In this document: positions 14,725 to 25,744 of the stretch, one piece after another
Position numbering within the stretch: position 1 is the first letter of the stretch
How the letters are laid out: every line of letters begins with the position of its first letter
From: a virus
Taxonomy: Duplodnaviria > Heunggongvirae > Uroviricota > Caudoviricetes
DNA: 27,415 bases
IMG/VR virus record: IMGVR_UViG_2681813230_000002
Span: 1-27,415 of that record
Reading direction: 5' to 3' (one strand)
The notes under the pieces: model-generated
Told to the model about the DNA's origin: nothing
What the model saw: the letters and a program-made list of their open reading frames with translations, nothing else
Databases searched by the model: none
Position numbers and translations under genes: made by a program

Positions 14725-14799
14725 AGTCCGTTTATCATAGAATAAAAGGCCCCTAAGGGCCTTGATTTATATCTATGGTAACTCTCGTCATCTTGTTCG

Positions 14800-18175: not shown

Positions 18176-18260
18176 ACTTACTCCCGTTACTTGCCGTAAC
18201 ACAGTGTGATAAGGGCCTTTGAAGTTACCGCTTCAAGGGCTTTTTCTTTTCTTGTGCCTC

Positions 18261-18806
18261 TCATATAACCCCCAGCATCGATGTAACCATCGTCATCAGC
18301 GGTCCTACCTGCTCCGGCATGAGGCGGAACAGCGACGCTATACCCTCGCTTACCTCTTTGAGCTTCTGATGCTCTGGAGCGTCCAGCAGCACGGCCTGTT
18401 TAGCCTCGGCACACTCTTTCATCGCAGAGGCGATCAGCGACATCGTGTCGTTCTGCGGCGCCAGACGGTTTCGGTACTCCAGCGGCAGGACCGACATGAT
18501 TGCCGGGGCCAGCTGGCGAATGTTGTTGGCGGCGTATTCGGTATCGCCATCAATCCATCGAAACACTTTCTGCATCTGGCGGTGCGAGTCAGTCGGGATA
18601 TCCAGACCGGTTCCGCCGGACGCCCGCCACTCTTCCACGATCAGCGCGGCGACAAATTCACGGCTTCGGCAATCAGCTGCCCAGGCGCGAACAGCAGCGC
18701 GGATCCCATCGATGTTTAACGCCGCGGAATCAGGCTCCCGGCGATTCTGGTAAATCATCGCCGTTGGCGAAAATTTGTTACCTTGTTGATACGCAAGTGA
18801 ATGCAT
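18261..18806 (-). CDS. YdaT-like / CII-position regulatory protein
   Basis: 181 aa; segment FRWIDGDTEYAANNIRQLAPAIMSVLPLEYRNRL resembles recalled Rac YdaT (HRWLKGETKTQREKIQKLIPAILAILPRELRHRL); sits between cro-like gene and O. Confidence 0.55.
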   Translation of the reverse strand: MHSLAYQQGNKFSPTAMIYQNRREPDSAALNIDGIRAAVRAWAADCRSREFVAALIVEEWRASGGTGLDIPTDSHRQMQKVFRWIDGDTEYAANNIRQLAPAIMSVLPLEYRNRLAPQNDTMSLIASAMKECAEAKQAVLLDAPEHQKLKEVSEGIASLFRLMPEQVGPLMTMVTSMLGVI

Positions 18807-18823
18807 TGCTTTCCCTTTCGTGG

Positions 18824-19057
18824 TTAGGCCGCAGTATCACGCGGCGATGCGAATACCAGGCTTTCTTTTAGGACCGGAGCCTGGCGGTGAAAATTCTTCG
18901 TGCCTTTCTCGATAGCAGATGCCATTTCTGGAGATGCCCGGCGATTTCCGTAGGCGATCTGGTCCAGGTAACCTGGCGTCGTGTTAGCCAACTTTGCGAG
19001 CTGCGCCCATTCGTCGGTAGTGGCGGCCTTGCGCCAGCGGTGTAGTTCAGTGCTCAT
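18824..19057 (-). CDS. Cro-like HTH regulator (YdaS-type)
   Basis: 77-aa ORF divergent from cI across an operator-containing intergenic region. Confidence 0.5.
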   Translation of the reverse strand: MSTELHRWRKAATTDEWAQLAKLANTTPGYLDQIAYGNRRASPEMASAIEKGTKNFHRQAPVLKESLVFASPRDTAA

Positions 19058-19173
19058 TGGTGTCTCCGGGTGAGTCGTTTGATTTGGAGTTTAGCGTTAT
19101 GCTAAATACTACGCAAGCATCATTTAGCAATTTGCACATTTATCATTTTGCTAAAAGCAGTAACAATGCAGGT
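19058..19173. promoter_or_regulatory. OR-like operator/promoter region between cro-like gene and cI
   Basis: 17-bp palindrome TTTAGCGTTATGCTAAA (19090-19106) plus two related sites (19123-19139, 19139-19155) sharing half-site TTTAGC/GCTAAA. Confidence 0.55.
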
Positions 19174-19851
19174 ATGGAAAATAAAGAAATCAGAAAAGCC
19201 AACCTGGAAGCGCTGTACGAGAAGCGTCAGCACGAGTCTGGAATGACCAAAGCGCAGTTTGCCGAGCTCATCGAGACAAGTCCGGCTGCGCTTAGCCAGC
19301 TACTGGGACCAAACCCTCATCGCAATATCGGCGATAAGATGGCTCGCAAAATTGAAACTGCGCTTGATCTGCCTTTTGGCTGGATGGATGTTTTACACGC
19401 CAGTGAAGAACCTTCGAACGTTGCATTTCGAGGACTGAACGAGACAAAAGGAAGTTATCCTGTAATCAGCTGGGTAAGCGCGGGGCAATGGATGGAAGCT
19501 GTAGAACCTTATCACCGAAGAGCGATAGATCGCTGGTATGACACGACTGTTGACTGCTCAGAAGATTCATTCTGGCTGGACGTTAAAGGGGATTCTATGA
19601 CCTCTCCGGCTGGACTGAGCATACCCGAGGGAGCAGTGATACTTGTTGATCCTGAAGTCGAGCCGCGCAACGGAAAGCTGGTTGTCGCGAAGCTAGAAGG
19701 CGATAACGAAGCGACCTTTAAGAAGCTTGTAATCGATGCCGGCAGACGCTTCCTAAAGCCCCTTAACCCCGCATATCCAATGCTAGAAATTAATGGAAAC
19801 TGCAAAATCATCGGCGTTGTGGTTGATGCCAAAATACTAAACATCCCATAA
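19174..19851 (+). CDS. cI: CI-type repressor with C-terminal S24 (LexA-like) autopeptidase domain
   Basis: N-terminal HTH region; C-terminal GDSM...FKKL Ser/Lys dyad motifs; start chosen at ATG 19174 (MENKEIRK...), the track ORF begins in the intergenic operator region. Confidence 0.85.
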   Translation: MENKEIRKANLEALYEKRQHESGMTKAQFAELIETSPAALSQLLGPNPHRNIGDKMARKIETALDLPFGWMDVLHASEEPSNVAFRGLNETKGSYPVISWVSAGQWMEAVEPYHRRAIDRWYDTTVDCSEDSFWLDVKGDSMTSPAGLSIPEGAVILVDPEVEPRNGKLVVAKLEGDNEATFKKLVIDAGRRFLKPLNPAYPMLEINGNCKIIGVVVDAKILNIP

Positions 19852-19870
19852 CCTCACGCAAAACCCCTCA

Positions 19871-19896
19871 AGCCCGCCATCGCGCGGGCTTTTTTA
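19871..19896 (+). terminator. Rho-independent terminator after cI
   Basis: AGCCCGC-CATCGC-GCGGGCT 7-bp stem followed by TTTTTT. Confidence 0.65.
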
Positions 19897-19934
19897 CGTC
19901 CCGAATTCCTTCGCTGTAAATTTTTAATCGCTTA

Positions 19935-20011
19935 TTAATCAATACGCTAAATAAAATCATTCAACAATTTAGCATTTTGCTATTGCGCATAATTTAGCAT
20001 CACGCTAAATT
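19935..20011. promoter_or_regulatory. OL-like operator cluster and putative pL promoter
   Basis: TTTAGCATCACGCTAAA (19993-20009) and TTTAGCATTTTGCTATT (19968-19984), plus a weaker site at 19935-19951; same half-sites as OR. Confidence 0.5.
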
Positions 20012-20414
20012 TACCCCATCGAAACGAAACATCGACAGCTGAGCGAAGTTAGCCAGCGGCGGACAGCAAGTCGCCTGCTTTTTAACAACATGCAGATTTA
20101 CAGCGTCAATGACCTGTTAAGACCCCTACACGTAAACGTGCTGTATCACCGGGTGCGATCCGGTCGGTGAGAGAGTATCCCCGCGCGAGAGCGAGAACGG
20201 CGTGAGAACGGGCAACACTGGCAGGGAGTTGGCGCTGACCAATACAGGGAATGTTATGGGATGTGGTGAAGGGTTCATGGACGGGAATATGTCGCACGTA
20301 AAGCGGCGAGGCCCGAGGAGCTATTGCCGAAGATAAGTAGGCCGAATCGGGTCGAAATGGGTCTCCCACCTACCACATCGCCAAAGCATTTCTCCCGCAT
20401 CAGCGGGTAAGTCA

Positions 20415-21083
20415 ATGATTCGTCTTAACAACGAAATTAAAAATCAGCTATGCCATAACCTGCTTCTCGCATCCCCATTGTTTGAGAAAGCGAAAGCTGC
20501 GGTTAATGAGAGGGCGAAAATTGTTGAAGAAATTCGACAGGCATTGCTCAAGCAGGAAAACACTAGCGATGAGCAAATAACTAAGGCTCGGGAAGATTTC
20601 AAAGATAACTCCTTCATCAAGATGCAGGTCGGCGCTAAAACTGCAATTTTAAAGGTCATTATTAATGGTGAGTATCACGAATTAGCCAGGAACGGTTTGG
20701 ATCATCGCTATCGCCACCGTGGAAAACATATTGGTAAGCACGATCTTGAAAGCGACCTGTTCTTCGGAGCTTCCTTCGCGCCTGTAATTGATTCGGGTTT
20801 CGTTCCTGAAAGTTACAGCACGCTGAAGAAAGTTGGAAAATTACACGACCGACTCACTGAATCGACGGTAACCATCAACGTTCTTTACGATGAAGTTGAT
20901 GCCTTCCAATTGCAGGTTAAAGGTGCTCTAACCAAAGTCTCAACTGTTAAAAAACTGGCTGAGATGTGGCCTGAGGCAGTGCCATATTTGCCTGAGGTGG
21001 AACGCCGTGAAGCGACCAGCACCGCACTTGCCATTCCCGTTGAAACGCTAAACGCCCTTTGCGGCATACCAAAGAATGAATGA
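20415..21083 (+). CDS. Hypothetical protein, 222 aa (pL-proximal moron; no family recognised)
   Basis: Clean ORF with lower GC than flanks, preceded by hairpin TCCCGC-ATCA-GCGGGA and a 370-bp ORF-free leader, followed by a strong terminator. Confidence 0.55.
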   Translation: MIRLNNEIKNQLCHNLLLASPLFEKAKAAVNERAKIVEEIRQALLKQENTSDEQITKAREDFKDNSFIKMQVGAKTAILKVIINGEYHELARNGLDHRYRHRGKHIGKHDLESDLFFGASFAPVIDSGFVPESYSTLKKVGKLHDRLTESTVTINVLYDEVDAFQLQVKGALTKVSTVKKLAEMWPEAVPYLPEVERREATSTALAIPVETLNALCGIPKNE

Positions 21084-21105
21084 CCCGCTCCGGCGGGTTT
21101 TTTAT
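21083..21105 (+). terminator. Rho-independent terminator
   Basis: ACCCGC-TCCG-GCGGGT stem followed by TTTTTTAT directly after the stop codon. Confidence 0.7.
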
Positions 21106-21244
21106 CGGCCATACATAGGCAGATTTTCGAGTCTGCCCATTTATGACAACCGGCGGCCATCCACCGCCCATTGAAACACTGAATAAATGCGTTGAAGTCT
21201 TGTATTAACCGTTCCGTTCGCCGCGATAAGGCCAAGAGGAAATC

Positions 21245-21373
21245 ATGGTAAACCAGCAGCAGATCAGAGAGGCCCAACGGCTCGCGTCGTTCGCGGTGCT
21301 CCATCGCAATGCTCCGGCGTGGGAAGAAGCAAAACGCCTTTACGCCGTCGCCATCGGGAGGACTCTTCACTGA
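21245..21373 (+). CDS. Small hypothetical protein (42 aa), not in ORF track
   Basis: Hand translation MVNQQQIREAQRLASFAVLHRNAPAWEEAKRLYAVAIGRTLH; AAGAGGA SD 6 nt upstream; stop overlaps next start (TGATG). Confidence 0.4.
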   Translation: MVNQQQIREAQRLASFAVLHRNAPAWEEAKRLYAVAIGRTLH

Positions 21374-21570
21374 TGGAAACTTTATTCGCACTCGTCCTGA
21401 CCGTGGCAATGACCAACGGTGATTATCAGGATGTCATTCTCGGCGTTTACGACAGCCAGCAGGAATGCAGCCTGGCAGCTACAGAGCAGAAAGTGTCAGC
21501 TGAGTGCTGGCCGGTAGAAAGCATCATCCGCAACGGCGAGTTCCCGGCGAAATCCATCGCGCAGCAGTAA
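21373..21570 (+). CDS. Small hypothetical protein (65 aa) with N-terminal hydrophobic segment
   Basis: METLFALVLTVAMTNG...; coupled to upstream 42-aa ORF; the track start at 21319 is in an Arg-rich leader and probably not used. Confidence 0.45.
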   Translation: METLFALVLTVAMTNGDYQDVILGVYDSQQECSLAATEQKVSAECWPVESIIRNGEFPAKSIAQQ

Positions 21571-21640
21571 CCACCCTATTCAACCGATCGGCCTGGCATT
21601 ACGCGGGCGGGATCTGCACATCCAAATTTCAGGAGAAACC

Positions 21641-22612
21641 ATGAGCGAAGTAACGGACTTAACTGTCATCGAAATCAAGCCGGAACAGGCCCCAGTGCTT
21701 TACGTAGCGGGCGGCCTTGACGCGTACCTTGAGCAAATCCGCCAGGCTGTAAACGAAGTGCCGGACCTGTCCACGAAGAAAGGCCGTGACCGTGTTGCCT
21801 CTCTGGCAGCGCAGGTGTCCCGCAGCAAGACGGCAATCGAAAAGCCGGGCCGTGAGTACCTGAAGCGCCTGAAAGAGGCTGTGCGTCCGGCTGAGGCCGA
21901 AATTAAGCGATTCGTTGATGCCTGCGACGAGCTGCGCGATGCGACCCGCCGCCCACTCACCGAATGGGAAGCCGAGCAGGAACGCATTAAGGCTGAAGAA
22001 GCCATGAACGCGATGCACGCCGAAGCGCTGGAGATGAACATCAGGTTCGATCAGGAGCTGGCTGCCAAGTTCGAAGCGGACCACGAAATGGCTCTACTGA
22101 TGAACAAGGATTTTGACCGTGACCGCGAAGAGCAGCGCCGTCTGGCGGAACAGGCTCAGCGTGAACGTGATGAGCGGCTGAAACAGGAAGCGGCAGAACA
22201 AGCCCGCCGCGATGCCGAAGCGAAGCACAAAGCGGAGATTGAAGCCGCAGCGCGCCGTGAAGCCGAAGAGAAAGCCCGCGCTGAACTGGCGGAGCGCCAG
22301 CGCGTCGAAGCGGAACAGCGTGCAGCTCGCGAGAAGCAGGAAGCGGAAGCCCGGGCGGAACGCGAAAAAGCCGCGGCGGTTGAAGCCGAGCGCCTGAAGG
22401 CCAAACAGGCCGAAGATGCCCGCCTGGCCGAAGAGAAGCGCCTCGCCGATGAGCAGGCAAAGCGTGAAGCTGACGTTAAGCACCGCAAGACGGTCGGCAC
22501 CAACATCGTTAACGCGCTCACCAGCCAAACCAGCTTAACCCGCGAGCAGGCTATCGAAGTGCTTACCGCTCTGAAAGATAACCTGATCCCCTGCGCGAAA
22601 ATTCATTACTGA
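21641..22612 (+). CDS. Hypothetical protein with long Glu/Arg/Ala/Lys-rich low-complexity coiled-coil centre
   Basis: 323 aa; globular N- and C-terminal segments flank about 150 aa of EAxxR-type repeats; sits just upstream of gam-bet-exo. Confidence 0.6.
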   Translation: MSEVTDLTVIEIKPEQAPVLYVAGGLDAYLEQIRQAVNEVPDLSTKKGRDRVASLAAQVSRSKTAIEKPGREYLKRLKEAVRPAEAEIKRFVDACDELRDATRRPLTEWEAEQERIKAEEAMNAMHAEALEMNIRFDQELAAKFEADHEMALLMNKDFDRDREEQRRLAEQAQRERDERLKQEAAEQARRDAEAKHKAEIEAAARREAEEKARAELAERQRVEAEQRAAREKQEAEARAEREKAAAVEAERLKAKQAEDARLAEEKRLADEQAKREADVKHRKTVGTNIVNALTSQTSLTREQAIEVLTALKDNLIPCAKIHY

Positions 22613-24708: not shown

Positions 24709-24863
24709 CTCACGCTCACGACGACATCAGGGTTGGCACGGTGCGCCTTCCCTGGCTCAAAGAGAAAAACGGATGGTTGCTGCCGTGGGGTGAAGTCGTT
24801 ACCAACCCACTGAAGGCGCAACGACTGGCTGAAGAACTTAACGAAAAGCAGGTGGCAGCATGA
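24705..24863 (+). CDS. Small hypothetical protein (52 aa), not in ORF track
   Basis: Hand translation MTHAHDDIRVGTVRLPWLKEKNGWLLPWGEVVTNPLKAQRLAEELNEKQVAA; ATGA overlaps at both ends. Confidence 0.4.
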   Translation: MTHAHDDIRVGTVRLPWLKEKNGWLLPWGEVVTNPLKAQRLAEELNEKQVAA

Positions 24864-25744
24864 GATACGGATCTGTTTGCAGTGGAGCTGCGGCGATGCC
24901 CATAGAAGAACCGGCGCTGCGCAGCTGGCAGCGCCCGTTCCTTAAATGGGCTGGCGGCAAATATTCGCTGCTGCCGGAACTGGATCGCCTGATCCCCGCA
25001 GGTAAACGCCTTATTGAGCCTTTTGTGGGTGGCGGCTCGGTGTTCCTTAACTCAGACAAGCACGAACGCTTCCTTCTGGCTGACGTCAGCGCTGACCTGA
25101 TTAACCTGTATCAGATGCTGGCGGTGGTCCCCGATTCGGTGATCTATGAGGCAATGAAGGCATTCAGGCATCTTAATGATGCCGAAAACTATACGTTAAT
25201 TCGTGAAGCATTCAACGCGCAGCGGCTGGATGCGGTCGAGCGTGCAGCAGCATTCCTTTACCTCAATCGGCACTGCTTTAACGGCCTGATTCGCTATAAC
25301 CTGGACGGTTTTTTTAACGTCGGCTTTGGGAAATATAAAGCGCCATATTTCCCGGAAGAAGAGATCAAGGCATTTAAGCGGAAATCTCACACATGCGTAT
25401 TCATGAATGCAGGCTTCAGGCGCACGCTCGCGCTGGCTGGTGATGGTGACGTCGTTTACTGCGATCCGCCTTATGAGCCGCTGCCCGGCACCGCGGGTTT
25501 CACTAACTACGCGGCTGGTGGGTTCTCATGGGATAGCCAGGTAGAGCTTACGGAAAGCTGTGTGGCAGCCCACCAGCGGGGGGCGAAAGTGGTGATCAGC
25601 AATTCTACCGCTCCGCGCGTAATTGAACTTTACGAACAGCACGGCTTCACGCTGCACCGCGTCAGTGCTCGCCGGGCTATATCCAGCAAAGGCAGTACCC
25701 GCGAAACAGCGAGTGATGTCGTAGCCACTTTGGGAGTGCAGTGA
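24860..25744 (+). CDS. dam: DNA adenine methyltransferase (Dam family, GATC-type)
   Basis: Motifs FLKWAGGKY, EPFVGGGSVFLN, YLNRHCFNGLIRYNL, DPPY match recalled E. coli Dam; start may instead be the internal ATG at 24896. Confidence 0.9.
   Translation: MRYGSVCSGAAAMPIEEPALRSWQRPFLKWAGGKYSLLPELDRLIPAGKRLIEPFVGGGSVFLNSDKHERFLLADVSADLINLYQMLAVVPDSVIYEAMKAFRHLNDAENYTLIREAFNAQRLDAVERAAAFLYLNRHCFNGLIRYNLDGFFNVGFGKYKAPYFPEEEIKAFKRKSHTCVFMNAGFRRTLALAGDGDVVYCDPPYEPLPGTAGFTNYAAGGFSWDSQVELTESCVAAHQRGAKVVISNSTAPRVIELYEQHGFTLHRVSARRAISSKGSTRETASDVVATLGVQ

Follow-up and report, generated by a model that had tools for sequence, protein, structure and literature searches.

A lambdoid Escherichia coli prophage opens its early-left (pL) operon with a folded leader RNA of the phage phi80 type and, in place of the antitermination gene N, a gene of the Nmad5 family; the two probably operate by the route proposed below. 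The locus lies in a 27,415-nucleotide (nt) stretch of viral DNA (IMG/VR record IMGVR_UViG_2681813230_000002, positions 1 to 27,415), the whole of which is referred to here as the window; its plus strand corresponds to the leftward direction of lambda. Positions 19900-21300 are 99% identical to a prophage of E. coli strain PEC422. The arrangement is rare: coverage of 19900-21300 reached 80% or more in 5 of the 5,426 complete E. coli genomes. The locus consists of known parts in a new arrangement: a leader of 200-420 nt free of open reading frames (ORFs) before the first pL gene is normal in lambdoid phages, and a first gene other than N is unusual.

The leader is a structured, conserved, non-coding RNA of 403 nt on the plus strand (20012..20414). 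Alignment to the complete phi80 genome (JX871397) showed that 20012-20410 is 100% identical to the phi80 pL-to-N leader, and blastn gave 99.5-99.7% identity over 399 nt to the early partial phi80 records M11919 and X13065. A putative nutL is annotated in JX871397, with 'nutL boxA' at window 20076-20084 and 'nutL core' at 20129-20140 (CACGTAAACGTG). The gap from the pL -10 element to N is approximately 220 nt in lambda and approximately 417 nt in phi80. The initial annotation had described an ORF-free, GC-rich and hairpin-rich leader of about 370 bp before an AT-richer gene, and had proposed that it could be a structured RNA. The longest plus-strand ORF in 20012-20414 encodes 44 amino acids (aa; 20202-20336), with none of 60 aa or more, and the fractional GC content is 0.551 in the leader against 0.450 in the Nmad5 gene (0.525 in the whole window and 0.582 in 21140-22612), in agreement with that description. 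The hairpins it named are present, with one correction, as the final base of the hairpin before the start codon is T and not A. Its structured RNA is also borne out by compensatory changes in two domains, M and R, and by a strand-specific folding excess: the plus strand of the leader folds better than shuffled sequences (z = -2.76, 1 of 100 shuffles as good) and the minus strand does not (z = -0.85). The 5' half folded alone has no stability excess over shuffles (z = -0.95), so that support for structure in this half comes from covariation and not from energy.

Pieces of the leader are found separately in other phages: 20016-20061 in HK639 and Enterobacter phages, 20012-20225 in HK225, 20076-20263 in Shiga toxin (Stx) 2a phages of the TL-2011c/O104:H4 type, 20076-20392 in PA2-type Stx phages, and 20257-20386 in HK97, 933W-like and P22-like phages. 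The leader is thus built as a mosaic of portable modules. A search of the whole window against Rfam gave no match at the gathering score; relaxed matches were far below threshold (isrK, E = 0.055, on the terminator; AgvB, E = 7.6). An 87-aa minus-strand ORF (20106-20369) was considered and is not supported, as variants of domain R carry stops in all six frames. A hidden coding gene on either strand of the leader was ruled out by these six-frame stops together with a 10-nt deletion in one variant.

The first module (20058..20088, plus strand) is a 5-bp hairpin, GGCGG..UCGCC (20058-20075), followed directly by the boxA TGCTTTTTAACAA (20076-20088). Written as TGCTTTTTA(ACAA), it is a boxA of the lambda nut type, and it matches 12 of the 13 positions of TGCTCTTTAACAA, the rrn boxA consensus. 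The leader thus has the hairpin immediately 5' of a consensus boxA that typifies rrn leaders. In leaders of the PA2/TL-2011c type a different hairpin (CGGCG..CGCCG) precedes an exact TGCTCTTTAACAA.

Domain M (20113..20225, plus strand) is a three-hairpin RNA domain in which P1 pairs CCUGUU (20113-20118) with GGCAGG (20220-20225) and encloses P2 (20129-20140), P3 (20141-20175) and P4 (20180-20212). The boxB-like P2, which is the 'nutL core' of phi80, is the hairpin CACG-UAAA-CGUG, with a stem of only 4 bp (-3.3 kcal/mol); this stem covaries (CACG/CGUG, CGCA/UGCG, CACA/UGUG), and the loops stay A-rich. The hairpin CACCGGGTGCGATCCGGTCGGTG at 20147-20169 has a folding energy of -11.9 kcal/mol in context. 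A search with the motif GGCGTGRGAACGGGCAACACTGGC, added to earlier loci, gave at least 134 instances of the domain and at least 63 unique variants. Across 20 variants, 96.8% of the cells in the 33 pairs were paired, compared with 32-44% when the partners were slid. Nine pairs changed on both sides, a number reached by 4 of 500 shuffles, and the covariation score was 0.254 compared with 0.126 for the shuffles (reached by 0 of 500). The domain occurs once in the window, with no second copy on the pR side.

The genes within 2.5 kb of domain M were surveyed in the distinct loci with at least 1.8 kb of downstream sequence among the matches listed (n = 96). A phi80-type N was found in 5 of the 96 and Nmad5 in 12, and the N genes of lambda, HK97 and P22, and Nun, in none. 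Since only 5 of these loci encode a phi80-type N, host factors, and not N, are the probable partners of domain M. Its carriers include the viable or induced phages HK225, KO-TP1 and the PA2/TL-2011c Stx phages. In 11 distinct loci the first gene after domain M encodes a 70-aa basic protein (MTQTYIPACLRDLPKKRQKPRKQAIKEAQ...; L002:2798-3010, which is HK225_041 of the viable phage HK225, and loci L012, L145, L147 and L148 among others), a candidate small regulator or N analogue of the HK225 sub-group.

Downstream of domain M, GGCGCTGAC (20231..20239, plus strand) followed by CAATA resembles the boxB region of HK97/P22, GGCGCTGACAAAGCGCAATAA, minus 6 nt; the equivalent position in HK97 holds GGCGCTGACAAAGCGC. 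This possible boxB relic was read by eye and is of low confidence. The resemblance points to an N leader of the P22/HK97 type, with a boxB that decayed, as the ancestor of the 3' half of the phi80 leader.

Domain R (20249..20391, plus strand) is a 143-nt stem domain of N leaders, in which a 21-pair interrupted closing helix (20249-20272 with 20369-20391) surrounds four small hairpins. Its invariant core GGTCGAAATGGGTCTCCCACC retrieved at least 119 IMG/VR loci, which gave 26 distinct variants. RNAalifold on these variants predicted 47 pairs, with 98.7% of cells paired compared with 36-50% when slid; six pairs changed on both sides, no shuffle reached the covariation score, and compensatory changes were present in five pairs of the closing helix. 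Each of the six frames contains stops in 23-26 of the 26 variants. Among the matches listed, the domain always ends 30-60 nt before a start codon, and the gene that follows it in 121 loci is an HK97/933W-type N in 81, a lambda-type N in approximately 20, phi80 N in 7, a gene of the Rha type in 8, Nmad5 in 3 and another gene in the remainder. Phage phi419 carries a domain R variant in which a 10-nt deletion (L006:1590-1600) removes one arm of an internal hairpin; 10 being no multiple of three, the deletion fits a non-coding element. The annotation of phi419 itself stretches an 'N-like' ORF into domain R.

The closing helix of domain R is near-identical to that of the large stem in the lambda N leader (GGCUUUGGGGUGUG.../...CACACCACCAAAGC), and, as in lambda, a long interrupted helix with a conserved closing sequence lies between nutL and the Shine-Dalgarno (SD) sequence. 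In lambda, this stem is reportedly where ribonuclease III (RNase III) acts to modulate N translation. The effect of RNase III on lambda N mRNA and N synthesis is positive, lambda nutL lies approximately 200 nt 5' of N, and N translation is repressed by nutL-bound N together with Nus factors (PMC9032294, PMC5725501). By analogy, domain R may be cut by RNase III and, jointly with the hairpin at the ribosome-binding site (RBS), may tune translation of the first gene. A third, unrelated interior was found within a compensated domain R closing helix (GGGAUUGGAUG pairing with CAUCCAAUCGCC) in the Klebsiella phage KO-TP1 (L007:3400-3590). Antibiotic induction yielded this phage, which shares with the window its immunity region and its leader up to window position 20270; its first pL gene is a 65-aa ORF, and it has no N.

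The RBS hairpin TCCCGCATCAGCGGGT (UCCCGC-AUCA-GCGGGU, 20393..20408, plus strand) has a folding energy of -9.0 kcal/mol, and its 3' arm contains the only SD-like bases (GGGU) that precede the ATG at 20415. A deletion private to the window has removed 13 nt (CGACAGAGGGTAA, between two GGGTAA repeats) before the Nmad5 start, at 20405-20414. These 13 nt are present in every close relative, including the 99%-identical PEC422 prophage (compared at L013:3500-3530 and in L140), and the relatives read GCGGGTAACGACAGAGGGTAAGTCAATG, with a free GAGGG SD. The deletion thus removes the free SD and leaves GGGU inside the hairpin. Either a mutation that lowers expression of a toxic gene or an error in sequencing or assembly may account for it.

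The 222-aa gene (20415..21083, plus strand) is followed by an intrinsic terminator of the Nmad5 cassette (21082..21105, plus strand), GACCCGCTCCGGCGGG then T6, with a folding energy of -14 kcal/mol, which would act as tL1 here. A second hairpin without a T tract (core 21118-21137, extendable to 21110..21145; -12.4 kcal/mol, plus strand) is kept in the closest Nmad5 loci. The ORF, terminator and second hairpin were all in the initial annotation and are present. Identity to phi80 ends just 5' of the start codon and returns at approximately 21141, where a spacer (21141..21240, plus strand) matches the phi80 region between tL1A and tL1B and marks the 3' boundary of the exchanged cassette. All compared Nmad5 loci have the terminator GACCCGCTCCGGCGGGTTTTTT, which is unlike phi80 tL1A. 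All of them except an N-bearing lineage, which shares only AGAGGGTAAG, also have CAAAGCATTTCTCCCGCATCAGCGGGTAACGACAGAGGGTAAG as their upstream hairpin and RBS. As hairpin and RBS are common to phi80 N and Nmad5, the exchange point is placed in the SD region, and the cassette exchanged for phi80 N extends from the SD sequence to just past the terminator.

The initial annotation recognised no family for the 222-aa product. It is a full-length Nmad5 protein (PF18757, E = 1.2e-30, 107.6 bits against a cut-off of 27, residues 2-219 aligned to positions 1-206 of the 206-position profile; phrog_1965, E = 2.5e-49) and is already named Nmad5 by the Prokaryotic Genome Annotation Pipeline (PGAP). An exhaustive HMMER search gave 132 Nmad5 representatives, all of approximately 200 aa. 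A C-terminal motif, T-x-K-K-L-x-x-x-W-P-E ... L-N-A-L-C-G-(I/L)-P, is conserved in the family; in 34 sequences W185, P186, P193 and N213 are invariant and T177, L181, L212, G217 and P219 are at least 90% conserved. A confident AlphaFold2 model (predicted local distance difference test 86, predicted template modelling score 0.80) comprises a pair of long antiparallel helices, an insert of five strands and a small helical unit at the C terminus. No enzyme-like structural relative of this model was found, and the helical, apparently non-enzymatic fold leaves the label of modification enzyme without support. The family takes its name from neighbouring nucleotide- or DNA-modification genes. None was found next to Nmad5 in the window, where the sole candidate encodes a DNA methyltransferase (24860-25744), 3.8 kb downstream; one distant Nmad5 homologue is in an operon with a Mom-like gene, and other distant homologues are not. 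The initial annotation had also allowed for a well-characterised early protein behind a decayed N gene. The protein belongs to a named family that is functionally uncharacterised, and the leader is indeed a known N leader, with conserved structure, but not a decayed N gene.

In a Dhillonvirus, nmad5 could be deleted, cloning of the gene failed with apparent toxicity, and a single K-to-E change, but not deletion, conferred escape from Tmn defence (PMC11846954). The lysine concerned aligns with K180 of the window protein, within the conserved TVKKLxxxWPE motif. In Dhillonvirus the gene stands by itself amid the head genes, in the opposite orientation. VLCpiS11a and SaI_NFG_5577, which are unrelated phages, each have an Nmad5 homologue first or second in an early operon, before exonuclease and annealing genes. 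A relative 81% identical to the window protein is encoded in an operon of the order pL, N (PF25694), two small ORFs and Nmad5; the presence of N upstream indicates that Nmad5 is an accessory gene of the N-kil zone and not an N substitute by descent. The window clade of Nmad5 comprises 22 loci, 20 of them without a recognisable N, and its leaders range from 270 to 1300 nt and fall into five or more kinds, among them the phi80 type, the HK225 type (with small ORFs), the HK639 put type and the KO-TP1 type. The first pL gene of PA2 was considered as an Nmad5 homologue and rejected, as it encodes a Rha-family regulator. Nmad5 is most likely an early accessory protein with a role in host take-over or in interplay with host defences, and not in lysogen immunity.

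No N was found in the 27.4-kb window by tblastn with the N proteins of lambda, P22, HK97, phi80 and L134 and with Nun, and neither an N elsewhere in the window nor a small arginine-rich ORF was credible. The pL regions of HK225, KO-TP1, PA2 and TL-2011c also contained no N. Lambdoid phages without N have been acknowledged and are presumed to use put (PMC12315714). Rfam has no model for put, as HK022 and HK639 give no match. A model (R1) was built from 12 put RNAs of the HK022/HK639 type (putL, putR and HK639 put); it has few base pairs, so that mainly sequence was tested. The model scored 68-76 bits (E approximately 1e-15 or better) in HK639, L011 (E. coli L73), L141 and L150. It gave no match at E up to 10 in the window leader or in the phi80 or HK225 loci, and weak partial matches only (E 1.7-3.9) in the PA2 and TL-2011c loci. 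The proposal of a put- or nut-type element in the initial annotation is therefore sustained for nut, by the boxA and 'nutL core' annotated in phi80, and not for put; nothing supports its suggestion of an antitoxin-like leader.

An HK639-type put RNA is present in five Nmad5 loci without N (L141, L144, L150, L152 and E. coli L73/L011). In sister prophages it lies in the pL leader upstream of the same Nmad5 (L011:3180-3251, L141:3797-3868, L150:3573-3644). In strain L73, PGAP places an antisense 'ECs_2282 family putative zinc-binding protein' inside the put leader, which may be a mis-call over a non-coding RNA.

On the route proposed for the window locus, induction would allow pL to transcribe the leader, and host NusB and NusE would bind boxA. 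Domain M would act in cis with no phage N involved, its target being the elongating polymerase or the folding of the RNA, and RNase III would cut the closing helix of domain R, as in lambda. This cleavage and the RBS hairpin would together set the level of Nmad5 translation, and unmodified transcripts would end at 21082-21105. Several points weigh against this scheme. Every functional step in it is deduced. pL was placed by homology, and a strict consensus promoter scan did not call it. The covariation in domain M mostly splits two clades and so represents few independent events. In addition, phi80 encodes N beside the same leader, which could be an orphaned N-dependent nut site, in which case the prophage would be partly defective.

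The last of these points can be developed into an explanation of its own, in which N was lost to Nmad5, pL transcription stops at 21082-21105, and the prophage is crippled, with gam, bet, exo and xis poorly expressed and a leader that lacks any function of its own. The full identity of the leader to that of phi80, where N and a putative nutL are annotated, the lack of N in the window, the strong terminator directly after the gene and the rarity of the exact arrangement (5 of 5,426 genomes) are consistent with this explanation, and the private 13-nt RBS deletion suggests drift. It is nevertheless considered rather unlikely, as 91 of the 96 listed loci that preserve domain M, with compensatory changes, have no phi80-type N, the carriers include the viable or induced HK225, KO-TP1 and PA2/TL-2011c Stx phages, and the remainder of the window resembles an intact lambdoid early and late region. 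The same conservation raises the tentative possibility that the hairpin-boxA and domain M (20058-20225) form a third kind of lambdoid early antitermination device, cis-acting, independent of N and dependent on host factors only, although we think this rather doubtful. Such a device would use an rrn-like Nus complex, or bind RNA polymerase directly as put does; it would be the early switch of approximately 100 known prophages and phages without N, including PA2 and the TL-2011c/O104:H4-type Stx2a phages, and phi80 'N' would be an accessory to it and not the core factor.

Two further explanations centre on the gene. The initial annotation had placed it in a hotspot for superinfection-exclusion or defence cargo (the rexAB or sieB position), and in its strong form Nmad5 would be expressed from the prophage to protect the lysogen, with the leader as its antitoxin-like or regulatory RNA. 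The location in a variable, accessory-gene zone of the pL operon was confirmed, and a GC content lower than the surroundings and a terminator of its own give the gene a moron-like anatomy; the Dhillonvirus gene, uncloneable and apparently toxic, has a genetic interaction with Tmn (PMC11846954). A cargo function is however improbable. The gene follows directly on the repressor-controlled pL, a strict consensus scan that also missed pL called no promoter-like site in 19800-21700, and the PADLOC defence-protein models gave no match at E up to 0.01; for these reasons Nmad5 is read from its position as an early lytic gene that is unlikely to be lysogen-expressed cargo. Its distant homologues occur in a virulent Dhillonvirus and at the head of early operons in other phages, settings that argue for a phage-side and not a host-protective function, and the leader is shared with N, Rha and other genes and so is not specific to Nmad5. 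It is very improbable that Nmad5 is instead a non-homologous functional replacement for N, acting on the nut-like leader or on RNA polymerase to pass the terminator. The gene does sit in the exact N slot, with the hairpin and RBS of phi80 N and a terminator after it, 20 of the 22 loci of its clade have no recognisable N, a homologue is the first or second early gene in two unrelated phages, and the modelled fold appears helical and non-enzymatic. Against this, one lineage holds both N and Nmad5, five Nmad5 loci already have a put antiterminator RNA, and the Dhillonvirus gene is deletable and on the opposite strand among head genes. The protein has no arginine-rich motif and no similarity to phi80 N, and Nmad5 is present in only 12 of the 96 listed domain M loci. 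The combination of a phi80-type leader with Nmad5 as an early accessory gene is thus the reading we favour.

Upstream of the leader, a cI-like repressor of the S24/LexA family (19171-19851; Peptidase_S24 and HTH_3 matches) is followed by an intrinsic terminator that ends the repressor transcript (19870..19897, plus strand), with an 8-bp GC-rich stem and then a T run. The OL operators and the pL promoter occupy 19934..20011 (plus strand), with repeated TTTAGCA..GCTAAAT half-sites (direct and inverted repeats D1, D2, I1 and I3). On the plus strand pL has a -35 element TTGCGC (19983-19988) and a -10 element TAAATT (20006-20011), the latter placed by alignment to the annotated phi80 pL -10. The plus strand after the cassette encodes a 42-aa ORF, a DUF1482 protein, a 323-aa protein, Gam-like, Bet and Exo proteins, the DNA methyltransferase and Xis; Cro, a CII/YdaT-like protein, O, P, Ren, NinB and Q are encoded on the minus strand. 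The 323-aa protein (21641-22612; phrog_1376), directly before the Gam-like gene, is highly charged with Ala/Glu/Arg-rich repeats. The phi80 pL operon also has a 323-aa gene, 'Agt/Mog, anti-toxin for Gam'.

On the pR side, a 15-pair hairpin with a T tract (18211-18244, plus strand) lies on the strand opposite to the CII/YdaT-like gene, at the position of the terminators of lambda oop and phi80 M3 RNA. The gap between cro and the CII/YdaT-like gene (18806-18824) is 17 nt, compared with 30 nt in phi80, and leaves no room for nutR or tR1. Antitermination signals in this phage group seem to be confined to the pL side. The sole terminator-like site between P and Q is a perfect 7-bp GC-rich palindromic hairpin (14746-14763, both strands) between two ORFs of the nin region.

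A route past early terminators in lambdoid phages without N is known only for put phages. The leader described here is a defined candidate for another: it is conserved, covaries, has a near-consensus boxA and heads the pL operon in many such phages, and these include widespread Shiga-toxin phages, in which early transcription governs induction and toxin release. Domains M and R are two structured RNAs new to Rfam, and domain R accompanies at least four unrelated N types. For Nmad5, the 'nucleotide modification' label is not backed by the fold, and the Tmn-escape residue falls in the conserved C-terminal motif. Should the leader be no more than an orphaned nut site, the locus would amount to an ordinary mosaic recombinant.

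Among known systems, phi80 (M11919, X13065, JX871397) has the same leader (20012-20410) and spacer (21141-21240), but carries N (98 aa) and tL1A where the window has the 222-aa Nmad5 and another terminator; the window operators and repressor are of another immunity type, and the window has the 13-nt RBS deletion. The lambda N leader has the same order of boxA, boxB-like hairpin, long interrupted stem, SD and first gene, with a near-identical closing helix. It differs in that the stem interior is unrelated, the window adds the 113-nt domain M between boxA and stem, and the window encodes no cognate N to bind the nut-like site. The put RNAs of HK022 and HK639 are likewise structured RNAs just 3' of pL in lambdoid phages without N, and in HK639 put is annotated, as here, in single copy on the pL side; the window leader, however, does not match the put model in sequence or structure and has a boxA, which is dispensable for put. 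The Nmad5 family (PF18757, PHROG 1965) is matched over the full length, including the C-terminal motif, but the window member is the first pL gene of a temperate lambdoid prophage and lacks the 80-residue N-terminal extension of the SM_S22 protein. With the rrn leader (boxB hairpin, boxA, boxC and the RNase III-cleaved 16S stem), a system that uses host factors only (PMC4807359, PMC6614801), the window leader shares a hairpin directly 5' of a near-consensus boxA and a long RNase III-type stem further 3', whereas domain M has no counterpart there.

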